DNA from: a virus
IMG/VR virus record: IMGVR_UViG_3300025117_000020
Direction: 5' to 3' (one strand)
Length of the DNA: 39,090 bases
A program made the position numbers and the translations under genes. This document shows, in pieces, positions 5,666 to 39,090 of this stretch. The notes under the pieces are model-generated. The model ran no database searches. It saw only the letters and a list, made by a program, of their open reading frames with translations, and was not told where the DNA came from. Positions within the stretch are counted from its first letter, which is position 1; every line of letters starts with the position of its first letter.

Positions 5666-6476
5666 AAAAAGACCTTCCTTCCAATTTTATCCAAGTGATT
5701 GGCTCGCAGATCCGAATGTTATAGCCATGACGGCAACTCAACGCGGAGGATATATACAACTACTCGCGACAATGTGGACAACAGCAGAATGTGAATTGTG
5801 GAATGACGACGCTTATTTGTCGAAAATATCAGGATTAACAGATATAGAATTAGGATTGGTAAAACGATGCTTTGTTAAAAGTCCTATACAAGCCGAAAAC
5901 ATAACTCATAAACGATTGATATACGAGCGACATAAACAAGATAACTTCAAAGATAACTGCTCACGCGCCGGAAAGCAGGGTGGAGGCAACCCAGCCTTTA
6001 AAAAAGGTAAGCCGAACCCATACTATTCGGCTCTGGTAGCGGGGAAAGATAAACATAAAGGTATGGATAAAGGAGAGGATAAAGGTAACATAAACTCTTC
6101 TTCTCCTTCTTCTTCTCCTTCTTCTTCTCCTTCTTCTAAATCTCTTAAGAAAGAGATACACTTAGGCGTTTATGAATACTGGAATTCTAAAGAAATAATT
6201 AAACACAAACAATTCACGGATGGTATGGATAAGGCTATTGGCAAGGCGTTAAAGACCTATACAGATACTGACTTAAAGACAGCCATAGACAAATACGCGC
6301 TGGTTTTATCTAGTGATTTGTATTTCTGGACTCATAAGTGGACTCTTGAAGATTTCCTCAAGCGTGGGCTTACGCGCTTTGTGGATTCACCCATTGAAAG
6401 TTTTTTAAAAATCAAAGACGACAACGGACAACCGAAGCATGAGATATGGAAGCAAGAAGGTTACTATGACGACTAA
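5649..6476 (+). CDS. DUF1376 (YdaU-like) replication-organiser-type protein
   Basis: The N-terminus FQFYPSDWLADPNV...TATQRGGYIQLL matches the DUF1376 pattern. A Ser/Pro low-complexity linker separates it from a C-terminal domain. A DnaC-like loader gene follows. Confidence 0.7.
   Translation: MTNENRKRPSFQFYPSDWLADPNVIAMTATQRGGYIQLLATMWTTAECELWNDDAYLSKISGLTDIELGLVKRCFVKSPIQAENITHKRLIYERHKQDNFKDNCSRAGKQGGGNPAFKKGKPNPYYSALVAGKDKHKGMDKGEDKGNINSSSPSSSPSSSPSSKSLKKEIHLGVYEYWNSKEIIKHKQFTDGMDKAIGKALKTYTDTDLKTAIDKYALVLSSDLYFWTHKWTLEDFLKRGLTRFVDSPIESFLKIKDDNGQPKHEIWKQEGYYDD
6095..6137. repeat. 43-nt homopyrimidine tract made of (TCTTCTTCTCCT) repeats inside the DUF1376 gene
   Basis: ctcttcttctccttcttcttctccttcttcttctccttcttct encodes SSSPSSSPSSSPSS. 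It is preceded by GGATAAAGG at 6065 and 6077 and by further GATAAA/CATAAA copies. Confidence 0.9.
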
Positions 6477-6493
6477 TTTTTAACCATAAAAAT

Positions 6494-7411
6494 ATGATAA
6501 TCGGAAAATGTTTCAAAACATCAGAGGAGAATGGAGCGCGTATATATTCCAGCCTTATGGATGAGAATAATGGGTTTGAACATCCAAGGGATTTTCTTTT
6601 AAAGACAATTGTTAAAGGCTTGGGATTGCGCCAGATAGAATTTACAGATGGTGTTGTTGAAGAAAGTTTTTGTATAACTTGTAATGGCAAACTTGGATAT
6701 GAGAAATTTATGCTTGGTGATTATGGCGAAATAGAGGCGTTGAGAAGTGAATGTAAGCCTTGCCGTGATAAGGCTTTACTTGACTGCGAAGCAATAAAAA
6801 AAGAACAGGAGTATATTGTCAAACAGTGCAAGTGCAGTGGAAGACAGAATAAGAAGATTAAACACACCGGAATCGAAGTGGGTTGGTCTGACATACTAGA
6901 TGGATTTGAATTTCAAAAACAGTTTCTTGATTATGCCGAAAGGATATTGGATGGCAAAGAGGAGCTGGGTGCTTATGTTTTCGGTGGGTCTGGCACTGGA
7001 AAAACATTCCTTGCGAAGTTATTGAATAACGAACTTGTAGAATCAATGCGCGATGTTGTGTTTTTCAAAGCTGTTGACTTGGCGATGGTATTACGCACAG
7101 TCTCAATGGCAAACCGAAGGGATGAGGATGTCATGGGAAAAATTATAAACGACTTACGCTCGGTAGATGTATTGATTGTTGATGATTTGGGTACACAGAA
7201 AAACACGGATTTTGTGAAAGAGATTATGTTCTCAATATTCGATACGAGATACGACAACAGGAAGAAAACAGTTATCACGACAAACCTAACGGCTGATGAC
7301 ATAGGAGATGATCGGTTGGCTTCAAGATTCGCGGATGCTGGATGGATGAGGAAGTTTAATTTCAAAAAACACGACTTAAGACAATTAAAATTTAATCAAA
7401 AAAATCTATGA
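6494..7411 (+). CDS. dnaC: DnaC/IstB-like AAA+ helicase loader
   Basis: Walker A GGSGTGKTFLAK, Walker B LIVDDLG and a TTNL sensor-like motif are present. The N-terminus has Cys pairs (CITCNG...CKPC). Confidence 0.8.
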   Translation: MIIGKCFKTSEENGARIYSSLMDENNGFEHPRDFLLKTIVKGLGLRQIEFTDGVVEESFCITCNGKLGYEKFMLGDYGEIEALRSECKPCRDKALLDCEAIKKEQEYIVKQCKCSGRQNKKIKHTGIEVGWSDILDGFEFQKQFLDYAERILDGKEELGAYVFGGSGTGKTFLAKLLNNELVESMRDVVFFKAVDLAMVLRTVSMANRRDEDVMGKIINDLRSVDVLIVDDLGTQKNTDFVKEIMFSIFDTRYDNRKKTVITTNLTADDIGDDRLASRFADAGWMRKFNFKKHDLRQLKFNQKNL

Positions 7412-7668
7412 AAAAAACAATCAACACAGATAAAAGATCAGATGATGCAATTTTTATATTCGACTACATGATGAGTAAATTCCAAGCGTTCTATAAAACA
7501 AGTGATGTCAAATATGGTACGCTTGACTATTTTTATATCGAGGAAAAATTCACGGTAATGGCAAGAATGATTAAAGAAAAATTCAATGGAGATTTTGACA
7601 ACTTCACAGGAGCGATTCTTAATGCGCTTGCTTCAGGAAAATATGACGACAAGGATTTATCTGCTTAA
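7408..7668 (+). CDS. Hypothetical protein
   Basis: 86-aa ORF. Its ATG overlaps the upstream stop (ATGA). No motif was recognised. Confidence 0.6.
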   Translation: MKKTINTDKRSDDAIFIFDYMMSKFQAFYKTSDVKYGTLDYFYIEEKFTVMARMIKEKFNGDFDNFTGAILNALASGKYDDKDLSA

Positions 7669-7686
7669 ATCATAACCAATACAAAA

Positions 7687-8127
7687 ATGGAATCAATCGA
7701 AATCTGCCAATGTTGCGGTCACAAGACTACAATCTACAAGCATACGCTCAACGCCTCGATGGTATCGGCTCTCGCCAAGCTGGTGGAATTTTACGAGAAG
7801 AACAAGGCAAGAGCCAATCTTCAAAAGGATTTGGCACTTACGAAAAACCAGTACAATAACTTTCAGAAATTGCAGTATTGGGGATTGGTACACAGGAATA
7901 ATCTCGGATGGTTGCCGACTTGGAAGGCGATGGATTTTATACATTTCGGAGTATCGGTGGTTAGCAGGGTTGCCACAAAAGAGTCCGAGCCGTTACCGTT
8001 TGACCATCCAGTCTGGCAAGGCAAGATCCCACCGATGAAATTTGCATCAGAGTTCTTTCCGGAAAAGTACAAACAGCGAGAGGAGTATCAAGAAGAGAAA
8101 GGATTCGCACCATCTTTATTCGACTAA
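7687..8127 (+). CDS. Zinc-ribbon plus probable winged-helix DNA-binding protein
   Basis: 146 aa with N-terminal CQCCGHKT. A helical segment follows, ending ...NNFQKLQYWGLVHR, like a wHTH recognition region. The function is inferred only. Confidence 0.55.
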   Translation: MESIEICQCCGHKTTIYKHTLNASMVSALAKLVEFYEKNKARANLQKDLALTKNQYNNFQKLQYWGLVHRNNLGWLPTWKAMDFIHFGVSVVSRVATKESEPLPFDHPVWQGKIPPMKFASEFFPEKYKQREEYQEEKGFAPSLFD

Positions 8128-8130
8128 AAC

Positions 8131-8355
8131 ATGGCAAAAGTAAACCTTAAAAAATGGCATGAGATAGTTTGTTCAAGAGCCGGATGGCATTGTGAGCACT
8201 GCGGAAGATGGGGAGATAAGCAGACTCTATGCGGACACCATTTCCCGCACTCTCGCGGTTCAAGAATTGATCTTGCGCTAGATGTTAATAACGGGGTCGC
8301 ATTATGCAGTGATTGCCACACGAAAATCCACATGGGTTTAATCAAATTAAAATGA
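8131..8355 (+). CDS. HNH endonuclease
   Basis: CEHCG ... GHHFPHSRG ... NGVALCSDCHTKIH shows two Cys pairs and the His-Asn-His core. Confidence 0.8.
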   Translation: MAKVNLKKWHEIVCSRAGWHCEHCGRWGDKQTLCGHHFPHSRGSRIDLALDVNNGVALCSDCHTKIHMGLIKLK

Positions 8356-8768
8356 CAAAACAAATCCGAAAGATATTTTACGGAAAAGTGGCAAGCAACA
8401 AACTCGAGCTTGAGAACAAAGAGGGCTTCAAGTTTTGGTTACTAGGCTTGGAAGGTAGAGAAGTCGAGCTGACTGTCGGCGAAAAGCAACTCCGACATTA
8501 TGACGCAAGAAGTTTGCAACAAAACAAATACTACTGGGGCGTGATGATTCCGATACTAGGTAACTATTTCGGCATGACACATAACGAAACGCATGAGGCT
8601 CTCAAATGGCATTTTTTGAGGAAGGAAGACAAGAAGATTCCAACTATCCGAAGCACCACGGATTTATCAACAGTCGAGTTCGAGGAGTACATGAAACAGG
8701 TTAGAGTATGGGCTTCCGAGGAGTTTGGCACTTACATTCCGCAACCTAATGAACCATATGAATACTAA
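8352..8768 (+). CDS. ninB: NinB/Orf-family recombination mediator-like protein
   Basis: RSLQQNKYYWG ... STTDLSTVEFEEYMKQVRVWASEEFG resembles lambda NinB (RSLDQN ... STS..VGEF...). The ATG at 8352 overlaps the HNH stop (ATGA). Confidence 0.55.
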   Translation: MTKQIRKIFYGKVASNKLELENKEGFKFWLLGLEGREVELTVGEKQLRHYDARSLQQNKYYWGVMIPILGNYFGMTHNETHEALKWHFLRKEDKKIPTIRSTTDLSTVEFEEYMKQVRVWASEEFGTYIPQPNEPYEY

Positions 8769-14312: not shown

Positions 14313-14951
14313 ATGACTGACTCAATCAACAACTCGAATGGCGTGTCCTCCAGCTATGGCGTGTCCTCCAGCGATGGCGTGTCCTACAGCGATGGCGTGT
14401 CCTACAGCGATGGCGTGTACTCCAGCGATGGCGTGTCCTACAGCTATGGCGTGTCCTACAGCGATGGCGTGTACTCCAGCGATGGCGTGTACTCCAGCGA
14501 TGGCGTGTCCTACAGCGATGGCGTGTCCTACAGCTATGGCGTGAAAGAATCTAAAGGAGTTTACAGGGCTATTTTTGCCCCAAAAAAAGAAGGTAAGCCG
14601 ACTATATTCGGTGTTGAAGTTTCGGGAGATAGATTTGACGAAGTCTTAAGTAGTATCCATAAAAAACAAGGTGGCTGGAAGCCAAGAGCCAATAATGCTT
14701 TCGAGTTATATCTTAAGGCTGGCTCGGAATGGAGTAAGGTTGACGCGAGTGACATAAAAAAGAAACAGAATATCTGGGAAGGTATGCCACAAGAATTGAT
14801 AGATTACATTAGAAGCCTACCCGAGTTTAATGCCGAATTATTTGAATGGCACACGGGAATTAAGGCGAACAACGAGAACGCAACTCGCAAGGCTGAAATT
14901 CTAAAGAAGATAGCCGAACTCAAAGCAGAAGCAGATAAACTTATTTCTTAA
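14313..14951 (+). CDS. Hexapeptide-repeat (GVSYSD)n protein with globular C-terminal domain
   Basis: 212 aa. Residues ~10-77 are 11.3 tandem hexapeptides. The C-terminal 135 aa are non-repetitive (...WEGMPQELIDYIRSLPEFNAELFEWHTGI...). Confidence 0.75.
   Translation: MTDSINNSNGVSSSYGVSSSDGVSYSDGVSYSDGVYSSDGVSYSYGVSYSDGVYSSDGVYSSDGVSYSDGVSYSYGVKESKGVYRAIFAPKKEGKPTIFGVEVSGDRFDEVLSSIHKKQGGWKPRANNAFELYLKAGSEWSKVDASDIKKKQNIWEGMPQELIDYIRSLPEFNAELFEWHTGIKANNENATRKAEILKKIAELKAEADKLIS
14340..14543 (+). repeat. 18-bp tandem repeat, 11 full copies plus 6 bp
   Basis: The unit is ggcgtgtcctacagcgat. Copies differ only by tcctac/tactcc/tcctcc and gat/tat. There are no spacers. Confidence 0.95.
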
Positions 14952-14961
14952 TTAAAATCGT

Positions 14962-15216
14962 ATGGATGAAGTCAAACAGTATGACACGCAGTCGCCATTC
15001 GGATTCGGGATTGCACTCGGAGCACTCCAAGATGGCAAGTCGGTTTCCAGAATCGGCTGGAATGGAAAGGGTCAAAAATTGACACTCCAAGTACCAGACG
15101 AAAATTCCAAGATGACACTCCCGTACATCTACATCACTACTGTTGATGGCAAGAATGTACCTTGGTTGGCGAGCCAAACGGATTTATTGACTTATGATTG
15201 GACGTTGGTAGAGTAG
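14962..15216 (+). CDS. DUF2829 domain protein (Tad2-like candidate anti-Thoeris sponge)
   Basis: FGFGIALGALQDGKSVSRIGWNGKG ... VDGKNVPWLASQTDLLTYDWTLVE shows the hallmark GWNGKG and VPWLASQTDLLxxDW motifs of DUF2829. Confidence 0.8.
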   Translation: MDEVKQYDTQSPFGFGIALGALQDGKSVSRIGWNGKGQKLTLQVPDENSKMTLPYIYITTVDGKNVPWLASQTDLLTYDWTLVE

Positions 15217-15230
15217 CTCTTTCACAATTT

Positions 15231-15465
15231 GACGCTCGATTTGCGGGGCTACTCTCCACAAGTTGCGCGTTCGAGGCTGGACAATCCAAGGCGGAAACGC
15301 AACGGTAAAACCAGCCAAGATAGAGGGGAGGGGCGAAAGCCCTGTGCGGCGACCTGCTAGCAAGGATTACCCGTTACCCTCTATCGGTACTTGAAATCTT
15401 GTACTGAGCGGATAATGGTGTTAGATAAAGTAACTTCTATCACGGGTACCTATCCGCTCGCTACA
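15231..15465 (+). ncRNA. Candidate structured non-coding RNA, family unknown
   Basis: G+C-rich segment with no plausible ORF. Two 9-bp helices pair 15319-15327 with 15377-15385 and 15406-15414 with 15451-15459. GGGC-GAAA-GCCC (15331-15342) and GCG-GAAA-CGC (15291-15300) are tetraloop hairpins. Further helices pair 15235-15239 with 15271-15275 and 15276-15280 with 15311-15315. The GNRA loops exist only in the + sense. Confidence 0.55.
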
Positions 15466-15498
15466 AGGATTCAAATATAACTTAACAAAAAAGACAGT

Positions 15499-16894: not shown

Positions 16895-17608
16895 ATGCCT
16901 CAATCATTTTATTCATCAACAACTACTGGCGGAACTTTTTTTGACATCAACAGTCTTATAACTATTGACGGTTCGGCATCAACAAACGGTATAACCGTCA
17001 ATGCAACCGTTAAAAAGACTACAGGACACGATGTGTCACTTGTCTTTAGGTATATCAAAAAGAAATTCAATATAATGGAACGGGTGATTCTTGATAGAAG
17101 ATTAGACAGACTGGAGAAGGCGTTTAACAATGCCGTGGAAAACGGACAAGAGGCACTTGGCAACAAGCTATTGCTAGAACTGGCGAGAGAAGTAAAAGAA
17201 AGTGCGATATACGCAAAAGGTATTAGGTACTATGTTGACAGGGAGGTTTTATCAAGAGTCAAGAATAAGATAAGAGATGGACATATATCGGATACGAAAT
17301 TAAAAGACTACACGAGAGTTATACCGAAGGATGTATTAGCGAAGAAGAAAGCTGTTGAAGATGTATTTGACGGGTTTGTAATTTATCACTACTACAATAA
17401 CGCAATCGAGAAAAAGCTAGAGAAAAAACAACAGATGTCGCCAGATGAAAAGAGGAATATGAAAGACCCTATTTTATTTGGATGGATAAATGAATGTGAT
17501 AGGTTGTATTTTATTGGAGATTGGGAAGACGAGTATTGCGATTTAACATTCGATGAGATTATAGGAGTAGTCGGTGAAGCTAAATTATCAAAAACACCTA
17601 CCCTATGA
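16895..17608 (+). CDS. Hypothetical protein
   Basis: 237-aa ORF. No family was recognised. Confidence 0.65.
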   Translation: MPQSFYSSTTTGGTFFDINSLITIDGSASTNGITVNATVKKTTGHDVSLVFRYIKKKFNIMERVILDRRLDRLEKAFNNAVENGQEALGNKLLLELAREVKESAIYAKGIRYYVDREVLSRVKNKIRDGHISDTKLKDYTRVIPKDVLAKKKAVEDVFDGFVIYHYYNNAIEKKLEKKQQMSPDEKRNMKDPILFGWINECDRLYFIGDWEDEYCDLTFDEIIGVVGEAKLSKTPTL

Positions 17609-34198: not shown

Positions 34199-34244
34199 AA
34201 GTTTTTTAGGTTAGACAATCAGACAGTTATATAATGACCTTATG

Positions 34245-34270
34245 GCGACTCACCTCGTAAGATGAGCCGC
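34245..34270 (-). terminator. Hairpin downstream of 34280..34537
   Basis: An 8-bp stem pairs 34245-34252 with 34263-34270. One position is G-U on the minus-strand RNA but A-C on the plus strand, which fits minus-strand transcription. No U-tract follows. Confidence 0.25.
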
Positions 34271-34279
34271 GTAAGACCA

Positions 34280-37972: not shown

Positions 37973-39085
37973 TTATTGATTCTTGCTTGCTCTGACTTTC
38001 TTGTAGGCATCCTTGTAAGAGATTTTTTCAACCTCTGCTAACTTGGTAGCCTCAACATCGATTTGTTCTTCCTCGGAAAGCTCGACATCAGCACTTTTGC
38101 CGTGTCCTAATTCTGAAACATCTTCCTCTGAAAGAACTGTTGCAACTCCGATCAACTCTTTGAACTGACCATACTGTTCGTCTGAAAGAGTCTTCACGAA
38201 AGCCTCAACTTTCTCGACATTCGTTTTCGAGATTCCGACTTTGCCAACTTCGCCGAGAGTTACCTCTGCAACGCGTTCTGCCAATTGCTTTGTAGCTTTC
38301 TCTGCTTTCAATTCAGCGAGTTCCTTGCTAGTTTCAGCAAGTTTTAACTCTGCCGCTTGAACTGCATCAGGTGCTACTTCTTTCTCCTCAACTTTTTCTT
38401 CGACTTTCTCCTCTGGTTTTGCTTCGACCTTCTCCTCGACCTTAGCAACGCCATCTTTTGCTTCTACTTGCTCATCCTCTGATAATTCAGCGAACATAGC
38501 TTTCAAAGTTGTAACATCTTCTGTTGTTACCTTCTCTTTTGCGAGAAGACTGTCAGCATAAATACGGTATGCTTTCATACTTGAATTGTTAGGAAATAAT
38601 AAAGTGTCTGGTTGATAATCTTTTAATGGCGCGTCTTCACTCAAGAAAGCCGGTTGCATCCCTTTGATGACCGGTCTGTTGGTGAGCGCAATCCCTCTCA
38701 ATACATTCTTAATCGTACATTTCTTGCCATCTTTTACAGTTTCAAAAGGTGAGTATTCAACGCTAAAATACTTGAAGACTTTTTGCGTCAACATCTCTTT
38801 TGCCTTCTCGGAATAATCTTTAAACTGTGCAAATAAAGACTTGCCTTCAACAGCAAGTTCTTTCACCCAAGCGTAAGCACCCTTCTCCGGCTCGTGTCCT
38901 ACATCAATTCCAATCTCCACGCCAAGAACATTAGCGTCGAAATTGTCTTTGAGTTCCTGCAATAGTTTCGGAGTAATCTCAAACTTGCCATAACGCCTGT
39001 CGTAATAAGTTCCGCATTTGAGGATCTCATACTTATGGCTATCCAAATCAATCTTATCCTCGGCTAGAGTTATTGATGAAAGCAC
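37973..39085 (-). CDS. Mu gpI-like prohead protease / scaffold protein
   Basis: KYEILKCGTYYDRRYGKFEITPKLLQELKDNFD...GIDVGHE resembles the Mu-like prophage protease family. The C-terminal half is a Glu/Lys/Ala-rich coiled coil. The tracked GTG start is probably internal; the true ATG lies 8 codons further upstream across the circular junction (146..144). Confidence 0.75.
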   Translation of the reverse strand: MLSSITLAEDKIDLDSHKYEILKCGTYYDRRYGKFEITPKLLQELKDNFDANVLGVEIGIDVGHEPEKGAYAWVKELAVEGKSLFAQFKDYSEKAKEMLTQKVFKYFSVEYSPFETVKDGKKCTIKNVLRGIALTNRPVIKGMQPAFLSEDAPLKDYQPDTLLFPNNSSMKAYRIYADSLLAKEKVTTEDVTTLKAMFAELSEDEQVEAKDGVAKVEEKVEAKPEEKVEEKVEEKEVAPDAVQAAELKLAETSKELAELKAEKATKQLAERVAEVTLGEVGKVGISKTNVEKVEAFVKTLSDEQYGQFKELIGVATVLSEEDVSELGHGKSADVELSEEEQIDVEATKLAEVEKISYKDAYKKVRASKNQ

Positions 39086-39090
39086 CCTTA
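38964..39090. repeat. Terminal direct repeat (circular-contig assembly overlap), copy 2
   Basis: Identical to 1-127. The window ends exactly at the end of the identity. Confidence 0.95.

Follow-up and report, generated by a model that had tools for sequence, protein, structure and literature searches.

A boxA-like motif and a chain of separable hairpin modules in an untranslated gap of a groundwater phage early operon

Why would a phage keep 282 nucleotides (nt) of apparently untranslated sequence between two genes of its early block? The question is raised by positions 15217-15498 of IMG/VR record IMGVR_UViG_3300025117_000020, a 39,090-nt stretch of phage DNA that was analyzed in full and is referred to here as the window. 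An initial annotation placed this gap, which lies within a plus-strand early block, between a Tad2-like gene and a zinc-ribbon open reading frame (ORF), and both neighbors were matched as such; it described the gap as a single multi-helix RNA of about 235 nt. The comparison of relatives presented below points instead to a series of separable modules, and the most informative feature of the gap proved to be one that had gone unmentioned, namely a boxA-spacer motif at its very start that overlaps the upstream stop codon. The reading that we favor, at a probability of roughly 45%, is that this motif is a cis-acting boxA antitermination or anti-polarity site, accompanied by hairpins and tRNA-like elements that would serve RNA processing or stability, likewise in cis.

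The gap is a genuine, plus-sense, untranslated and strongly structured RNA segment. Its plus strand has a minimum free energy (MFE) of -102.8 kcal/mol compared to -74.3 +/- 4.6 kcal/mol for 200 dinucleotide shuffles, none of which was as stable (z-score -6.24), while the minus strand folds more weakly (-95.0, z -4.22) and the 10 G.U pairs of the plus-strand fold correspond to A.C mismatches on the opposite strand. As the initial annotation had noticed, the gap is richer in G+C than its surroundings, at 0.48-0.51 compared to 0.42 over the window as a whole and 0.39 in the genes downstream. The only ORFs within it start with TTG and encode at most 43 amino acids (aa), and gene callers made no call inside it in 10 independent assemblies. 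All seven helices that had been listed are complementary position for position, and both GAAA loops are present. Sequence identity among assemblies adds little here; the gap is 100% identical in 12 assemblies of the same phage, but the flanks from 14862 onward are equally identical, so that this identity is uninformative on selection.

The predicted fold resolves into four units, H1 to H4 (coordinates of these and all other features are collected in Table 1). H1 is a hairpin of about 18 bp, and H4 contains 22 pairs over 24 positions, interrupted by A.A and C.C mismatches, and constitutes a 27-nt inverted repeat. The closing stem of H3 has a pair probability (P) of 1.0, with an ambiguous interior. 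The MFE structure of the single sequence includes an outer helix, UCUUU/AAAGA, that overlaps boxA and whose 3' partner is not conserved. No U-run terminator was found downstream of the element, scans for sigma-70 promoters and terminators remained at chance level, and no conserved promoter was seen upstream.

Relatives of the element, in related mosaic groundwater phages, were found by scanning IMG/VR with a 16-mer and with the 3' strand of H4, followed by protein-cluster look-ups, and four versions can be distinguished: W, that of the window; C, the L325 type (L325 and L339-L345, 11 contigs); A, the L328 type (L328, L329, L330, and L335); and B, L332. Version W, behind the Tad2-like gene, has boxA, H1, H2, H3, and an H4 with a scarred apex. 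The L328 type follows a 118-aa gene and possesses boxA, H1, and H2, no H3, an H4 with a tRNA-like apex, and a second tRNA-like unit (z -4.73). L332, whose contig begins inside boxA, has H1, H2, an H3 of other sequence, and an H4 carrying a tRNA-like insert (z -6.77). The L325 type, located behind an unrelated 71-aa gene, is reduced to a 122-nt gap made up of the first 35 nt of W, its last 24 nt and degenerate fragments, and its fold is not significantly structured (z -0.76).

Every version retains two parts only, the 5' block that includes boxA and, at the other end, the 24-nt 3' block. The former (35 nt) is 100% identical in L325 and L339-L345, even though neither the flanking genes nor the interior of the gap are related there, and near-identical in L328 and L332; the latter shows one change in L325, in which its pairing partner is missing. 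The upstream genes differ, yet in all versions with a visible upstream region each ends in a TAG fused to the boxA block, and the downstream genes differ as well. Judged by these relatives, the region is a chain of separable modules and not one 235-nt fold as first proposed, since H3 is gone in L328 and nearly everything is gone in the L325 type; the window copy appears on the same comparison as a partial deletion derivative.

The helices were compared in a three-way alignment of W, L328, and L332 using RNAalifold and a pair-by-pair table. H1, H2, and H4 are kept by RNAalifold, and both L332 and L328 fold with the same architecture as W. H2 is the most conserved module, with only 3-4 substitutions across the three versions, internal loops included; its outer helix has changed from G-C to G-U, which keeps the pair, and its loop reads AAAA in L332. 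In the upper part of H1 a C.A mismatch is U-A in L328, gaining a pair, and pairing is also maintained by an A-U to G-U change in H4 of L328 and by a G-U to A-U change in the T stem of the tRNA-like units described below, while one U-G pair of H4 has been lost to A.G. The closing stem of H3 reads GAUAGAGGG/CCCUCUAUC in W and GAUAAUGGG/CCCGUUAUC in L332, and includes two compensatory double changes (from W to L332, G-C to A-U and A-U to U-G); where W has two A.G mismatches, L332 has C-G pairs, and its H3 interior has another sequence in the same layout. Two of the helices in the initial annotation fare less well than H1 to H4 in these homologs. CUCGA/UCGAG, complementary in the window, is not conserved, UCGAG being UGUAG in the relatives, and the long-range or pseudoknot pairing GGUAC/GUACC is likewise not kept.

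This pattern bears on whether the gap could be a new riboswitch or self-cleaving ribozyme controlling the downstream zinc-ribbon genes. The plus strand offers a pair of GNRA loops, together with internal loops rich in A, directly upstream of a gene, which would suit such a role, but one of the GNRA loops is AAAA in L332 and the other lies in the interior that is wholly replaced there, the domains are individually dispensable in the relatives, the downstream genes vary between versions, and no Rfam match was obtained at E values up to 10. A riboswitch or ribozyme is thus, in our estimate, extremely unlikely.

The lost pseudoknot finds an explanation in the apex of H4. In L328 the apex consists of a small hairpin and a 69-nt cloverleaf that scores 28.7 bits against the Rfam tRNA model (threshold 29, E 6e-4) and has acceptor, D and T arms (GCAGG-UUCGAUU-CCUGU) and a 3-nt loop in the position of the anticodon loop. 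A second tRNA-like unit in L328 (24.9 bits) has a large insertion in the D/anticodon region, and the insert in H4 of L332 reaches 23.1 bits on the tRNA-Sec model. ARAGORN rejects both L328 units; as candidates for tRNA genes they were set aside, lying below the threshold of 29 and having no anticodon loop, and the window itself contains no tRNA. In L328 and L332, the 3' acceptor strand is CGGGUAC, paired with GUACUCG. GUACUCG is missing from the window, as is the anticodon stem together with the T arm's 5' half, and the apex there retains a degenerate D arm, GUGUUAGAUAAAGUAACU (compared to GUGUUAGCAAUGGUAGCU in the relatives), along with CGGGUACC. Because the acceptor partner has been lost, the proposed GGUAC/GUACC contact can be understood as a tRNA-like remnant, GUACC being the orphaned 3' acceptor strand. 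The alignment identifies the H4 apex as the deletion scar of a tRNA-like element, in a window copy that is partly decayed.

Such a scar invites the view that, apart from the boxA block, the region is a decaying relic of a former phage tRNA or small-RNA cluster whose hairpins persist by inertia. L332 (full), L328 (no H3), the window (no tRNA-like unit) and the L325 type (almost nothing) can be arranged as a step-wise deletion series, the tRNA-like units fall below threshold and have no anticodon, the D-arm remnant in the window is degenerate, and the identity of the assemblies offers no counterargument, the flanks being just as identical. We nevertheless consider a mere relic unlikely, given that substitutions preserve pairing (two of them compensatory), that H2 and H4 are far better conserved than the wholly swapped neighbor genes, and that a z of -6.2 would be unusual for decaying sequence.

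The tRNA-like units equally raise the prospect of a trans-acting stable RNA, in which H1-H4 would be excised to serve as a decoy or sponge, one example being a tRNA mimic of the Y-RNA/YrlA kind, whose target would be a host factor or defense toxin recognizing the acceptor and T arms of tRNA. The structure is strong and strand-specific, H2 is almost invariant down to its internal loops, and the long stem of the relatives carries D and T arms with a 3-nt 'anticodon loop' in a manner reminiscent of YrlA; a hypervariable accessory island containing the anti-Thoeris gene Tad2 would also be a fitting location. However, neither YrlA nor any other Rfam family matched in the window, L328 or L332, no Rsr/TROVE gene was present among the window ORFs scanned against Pfam, the element has no promoter or terminator of its own, its tRNA-like part has been lost in the window and nearly all of it in the L325 type, and no homologs were found outside this phage group. 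A role in trans is therefore doubtful. A more specific proposal, which we rate as distinctly improbable, is that the full cassette as found in L332 (boxA, H1-H3, and H4 with an anticodon-less tRNA-like domain) represents a new family of phage stable RNAs, serving either as a trans decoy for a host tRNA-directed enzyme or defense toxin or as a scaffold for an 87-aa zinc-ribbon protein encoded nearby, with the window holding a naturally inactivated allele.

The evidence for the favored cis-acting reading centers on the boxA block. The motif AGCUCUUUCACAAUUUG matches the Escherichia coli rrn boxA-spacer ugcucuuuaacaauuua at 14 of 17 positions and is also similar to lambda nutR cgcucuuacacauucca (both as given in Table 1 of PMC2724277), and GCTCTTTNACAA has one exact occurrence in the window. 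Its boxA core, GCUCUUUCACA, agrees at 10 of 11 positions with the consensus GYTCTTTAANA (GYUCUUUAANA/UGCUCUUUA; PMC5725501), which is gammaproteobacterial; the single departure is at position 8 (A to C). In the spacer, ACAAUUUG, 7 of 8 positions agree with acaauuua of rrn, and the AUU that is required for NusA binding is present (PMC2724277). Taken alone this sequence match is suggestive. To it are added the placement of boxA, which coincides precisely with the stop codon of the upstream gene in W, L325, and L328 (three genes without homology to one another), its location on the sense strand in untranslated operon RNA, and the preservation of its core in L328. With respect to lambda-type nut sites, the hairpin that follows the spacer, H1, has the loop CUACU, and GAAA hairpins occur 60 and 110 nt downstream.

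Conserved blocks around unrelated sequence might alternatively operate as DNA, with the 35-nt and 24-nt blocks serving as recombination linkers for accessory cassettes (PeSL-like), or as an origin or protein-binding site. The blocks do flank unrelated genes and an unrelated middle, assemblies break at them, and H4 is an inverted repeat of 27 nt. We regard this as very unlikely in view of the preference for the plus strand with its 10 G.U pairs, the changes that yield G.U pairs on the plus strand only, the distance of 8 kb to the replication genes, and the fact that the blocks hold a recognizable RNA signal, boxA.

BoxA recruits NusB/NusE and, together with NusA, NusG and other factors, renders RNA polymerase resistant to Rho on untranslated RNA such as rRNA and lambda early RNA (PMC12360218). 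It likewise protects long CRISPR arrays, according to the portion of PMC7862264 that cites Stringer et al. In the window, boxA at the stop codon would recruit NusB/NusE(S10)/NusA to the elongating polymerase once the ribosome leaves, and the Nus-loaded enzyme may then be Rho-resistant across the long untranslated stretch and into the swappable accessory genes, an anti-polarity function. H1, H2, H3, and H4, and the anticodon-less cloverleaves that they flank in the relatives, would act in cis for RNA processing or stability. The long duplexes of H4 and H1 (22 pairs over 24 positions and ~18 bp) appear, from their predicted folds, to have the dimensions of substrates for RNase III-type enzymes, for which an imperfect duplex of ~20 bp or more serves as the yardstick, while tRNA-like units could be substrates for RNase P/Z; together, hairpins and tRNA-like units would separate and stabilize the flanking mRNAs. 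The window, with its tRNA-like unit deleted and a scar in the apex of H4, would then represent a partly decayed form of an ancestral cassette. Nus-factor binding, antitermination and nuclease processing are what we infer from these likenesses; of the functions suggested by the initial annotation, the cis-leader option is the one that agrees with a cis-acting element of this kind.

Several observations weigh against this interpretation. A 17-mer match with up to three mismatches is expected 0.36 times per shuffled window, so that the argument for boxA rests on position and conservation; it was also made post hoc. The boxA is imperfect at consensus position 8, and the spacer is altered in L332 and in L328, where the AUU is lost. 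No Shine-Dalgarno (SD) motif was detected in the 25 nt upstream of 45 start codons across the window, these regions being A/T-rich and often containing TAA, which suggests a host whose translation initiation is not dependent on SD motifs, e.g., one that is Bacteroidota-like; the hint of a non-enteric host implies that the host's boxA consensus may differ. A boxA of the GCUCUUUC/AACAAUUU type in the rrn leader of the host would favor the boxA model, and one of another type would count against it. Neither a Rho-dependent terminator nor a rut site was identified, and no N-like protein was recognized among the window ORFs. Furthermore, the modules are dispensable, the deleted L325 type being common in the same habitat (11 contigs), and the informative relatives number only three and are closely related, leaving covariation thin (two double changes, both in H3).

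Motifs of this type extend beyond the immediate relatives. When IMG/VR was scanned with the 16-mer GCTCTTTCACAATTTG, 50 loci in ~30 sequence families were recovered, and in approximately one third of these families the motif resides in non-coding DNA, often beside small G+C-rich hairpins located before or after it. In one 12-member IMG/VR family the motif opens a conserved non-coding leader stretch of ~150-230 nt with a CCCCGGAAACGGG hairpin inside it; the element in these 12 contigs begins with the boxA-like sequence CGCUCUUU(C/A)ACAAU, has no match in Rfam, and is also present in isolated phages whose hosts are unrelated, namely Pseudomonas phage psageK9 and Leptolyngbya phage Lbo-JY16. In Lbo-JY16 the motif, a close variant CGCTCTTTACACAATC, reads CGCTCTTTACACAATCAGG and lies downstream of a TTGACT hexamer and two hairpins, within a 616-nt leader that separates the early operon from a regulator transcribed in the opposite direction. 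A leader between a divergent regulator and an early operon is the classic location of a nut-type site, and the element shared by L289, Lbo-JY16, and psageK9 has the look of a nut-type leader not yet catalogued. When 1.67 Mb of phage DNA was searched with a covariance model of boxA-H1-H2, no additional members were detected.

BoxA recruiting sites are found elsewhere in rRNA leaders, lambda nut sites and the leaders of CRISPR arrays. Like these, the window motif is on the transcribed strand of an untranslated RNA, here of a phage early operon, is followed by hairpins, and is kept while its surroundings change. It differs in being located between genes, right after a stop codon, and not in a promoter-proximal leader, in having one consensus mismatch, and in that no N-like protein or canonical boxB pentaloop was found; the motif, known here from its sequence, is moreover followed by ~250 nt of structure compared to the single 15-nt boxB of nut sites. 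The structured portion resembles other systems. The T4 tRNA region is a phage tRNA cluster that also contains the stable RNAs of species 1 and 2; like the present element, it groups compact structured RNAs, some of them tRNA-shaped, in an untranslated stretch of a phage transcription unit, with maturation by host RNases presumed. In contrast to the T4 cluster, the units of the relatives have no anticodon loop, the window has no such unit, and the other hairpins are not tRNA-like. YrlA is reportedly a tRNA mimic set on a long stem, and the long imperfect stem of H4 in L328 and L332 similarly carries acceptor, D and T arms without a functional anticodon arm; there is, however, no Rfam YrlA match, the ORFs of the window scanned against Pfam do not include rsr (Ro60), and the tRNA-like part is deleted in the window.

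In the early region of T7, RNase III processing hairpins R0.3-R1.3 are situated between genes. H4 and H1 resemble them in being long imperfect duplexes with small symmetric internal loops, intergenic in an early operon and free of a terminator, a likeness drawn from predicted folds; there is no sequence similarity, and H2 and H3 are not simple duplexes. PeSL elements are said to be mobile regulatory cassettes of T4-type phages, and as in those, the exchanged accessory genes of a hyperplastic region are bordered here by short conserved non-coding stem-loop blocks; an early promoter is part of PeSLs, whereas no conserved promoter was seen here and the conserved signal is boxA-like. Overall, these analogies suggest that the element would work most like an rrn/lambda boxA combined with a phage small-RNA/tRNA cluster.

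Table 1. Coordinates of the untranslated element, its modules, neighboring genes and related elements in other contigs.
Feature	Coordinates	Strand	Remarks
Tad2-like gene, 84 aa	14962..15216	+	PF11195; phrog_872/1048; homologs 71-92 aa
TAG stop of Tad2-like gene	15214-16	+	Overlaps conserved 5' block
Conserved 5' block	15214..15248	+	Stop codon, boxA, spacer, 5' strand of H1
boxA-spacer-like motif AGCUCUUUCACAAUUUG	15215..15231	+	14/17 to rrn boxA-spacer; opens gap over TAG stop
H1 hairpin	15231..15271	+	GACGC/GCGUU base; UUUG.GGGG/CUCC.CAAG top; loop CUACU; pair probabilities 0.98-1.0
H1 base helix GACGC/GCGUU	15231-35 / 15267-71	+	Invariant in relatives
H2 hairpin	15275..15316	+	GGCUGG/CCAGCC; A-rich 5x5 and 3x3 internal loops; GCG-GAAA-CGC tip; P ~1.0
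H3 domain	15319..15385	+	9-bp closing stem around GGGC-GAAA-GCCC and a second small hairpin
H4 hairpin stem	15391..15474	+	24-position stem 15391-15414 / 15451-15474; P 0.96-0.98
H4 apex	15415..15450	+	Degenerate tRNA-like remnant (scar); cloverleaf at this position in L328, L332
Conserved 3' block UAUCCGCUCGCUACAAGGAUUCAA	15451..15474	+	3' strand of H4
A-rich tail	15475..15498	+	Up to next start codon
Zinc-ribbon ORF, 60 aa	15499..15681	+	Directly 3' of gap; weak Zn_Tnp_IS91 match
Lys-rich zinc-ribbon gene, 87 aa	15893..16156	+	Co-occurs with structured versions of the element
tRNA-like units	L328 10383-10451, 10476-10568; L332 229-298		
Leader element, ~150-230 nt	L289 1868-2050; L346 (Leptolyngbya phage Lbo-JY16) 1501-1647; Pseudomonas phage psageK9 29171-29392		

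The absence of known RNA families was examined at several levels. Rfam 15, whose families also cover SRP, 6S, group I/II introns and ROOL/GOLLD, gave no matches at gathering thresholds across the whole window, and at E values up to 10 on three stretches, including ones of 501 nt and 123 nt, only chance matches of the microRNA and long non-coding RNA type. ARAGORN detected no tRNA or transfer-messenger RNA (tmRNA) in the window, in agreement with the initial annotation, which had matched the gap to no tRNA, tmRNA, RNase P, riboswitch or ribozyme, and BLASTN against GenBank phages found no similar DNA. The element belongs to no catalogued RNA family. Individual candidates were considered and rejected: YrlA or another bacterial Y RNA (no Rfam match in the window, L328 or L332, and no TROVE/Rsr among window ORFs scanned against Pfam), a group I intron (no RF00028 match, the Tad2-like gene being full length at 84 aa and the downstream ORF separate), an RNase P S-domain (a resemblance that no model supported), recoding of three in-frame stops or read-through at them (their density being ordinary), an attP site (no integrase recognized among the ORFs scanned), a replication origin (replication genes 8 kb distant), and a Bacteroidetes-type promoter in the 5' block (poor match).

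Searches from other starting points were similarly unproductive. No comparable downstream gap and no nhmmer match were found among Tad2 relatives (34 IMG/VR loci and a set of 5.8 billion proteins, with contigs inspected), 80 loci encoding relatives of a 237-aa protein showed no synteny, and searches with RecT and the 60-aa ORF yielded no relatives. A 24-mer from H3 had no matches in IMG/VR, where the internal-loop pattern of H2 gave 12, all in one coding family; a relaxed H2 pattern produced 120 random matches in genome contigs, none of them real, and the H2 pattern 16 random matches in metagenome contigs, a collection that does not itself contain this phage. A pseudo-ORF in an antisense frame retrieved only repetitive junk by phmmer from 1.84 billion representatives, and no diversity-generating retroelement or other repeat was found to involve the gap.

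The zinc-ribbon genes beyond the gap differ in their distribution. The 60-aa ORF is an ORFan whose sole match among 5.8 billion proteins is itself. The 87-aa protein has a Lys-rich N-terminus followed by a zinc ribbon, and homologs are encoded close to the 3' side of the element in L328 (10622-10885; 86% identity) and L332 (486-743), while the minimal L325 type, among the four versions compared, has no counterpart; it is accordingly a candidate RNA-binding or regulatory partner of the element. A few kb from the element in L329/L335, 44.5-kb phages that are relatives of L328, positions 6362-8665 encode GroES- and GroEL-like chaperonins (Cpn10 and Cpn60), an FtsK-like ATPase and NinG.

The window represents a complete, circularly assembled phage genome of 38,963 bp from a groundwater metagenome (contig ena:ERZ909592 k127_307895), the 127-nt exact direct repeat at 1-127 and 38964-39090 corresponding to the k-mer overlap of the assembly; the 39,090-nt contig is, in other words, complete, with a genome that is circular or circularly permuted. 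The encoded proteins include a Mu-like portal and protease, terminase, tape measure protein, RecT, a PD-(D/E)XK nuclease and a DnaC-like loader. Upstream of the Tad2-like gene, an 18-nt tandem repeat (~11 copies, 14338-14560) encodes the SSDGVSY-type N-terminus of a 212-aa protein, and its copy number varies between assemblies such that the protein has 212, 200, or 170 aa; L004 departs by 42 substitutions in this repeat region, with a recombination boundary at ~14861. Downstream, the 237-aa protein (16895-17608) matches phrog_10081, whose annotation as 'transposase' is doubtful. A 56-nt segment of its gene has an 87% DNA match to the 'transposase' of Clostridioides difficile phage phiCD211, and relatives of the protein are found, without synteny, in at least 80 IMG/VR phages, mostly large ones (over 100 kb). 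The strongest local structure of the genome lies elsewhere, on the minus strand at 34235-34277 (150-nt window, z -7.0), where a near-perfect 43-nt hairpin, GGUCUUACGCGGCUCAUCUUACGAGGUGAGUCGCCAUAAGGUC, without a U-run, is located 3' of a small uncalled ORF (34536-34279) and ~35 nt upstream of a 460-aa late gene; its probable role is in mRNA stability or processing.

For RNA prediction the locus carries a caution, in that a convincing multi-helix fold of a single sequence can be a chain of independent, partly decayed modules. What makes it noteworthy is an intra-operon boxA at a Tad2 island, the anticodon-less tRNA-like units in its relatives, and the highly conserved H2. The relatives reveal a small group of modular phage RNAs absent from Rfam, some of whose modules are tRNA-like units without an anticodon that sit inside a long stem. 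Should the boxA reading be true, phages far removed from the lambdoid/E. coli world would use an rRNA-type loading site for Nus factors, and a boxA placed within the operon would carry transcription over an untranslated insert into swappable anti-defense genes; boxA would then also provide a conserved anchor by which such accessory islands may be located.

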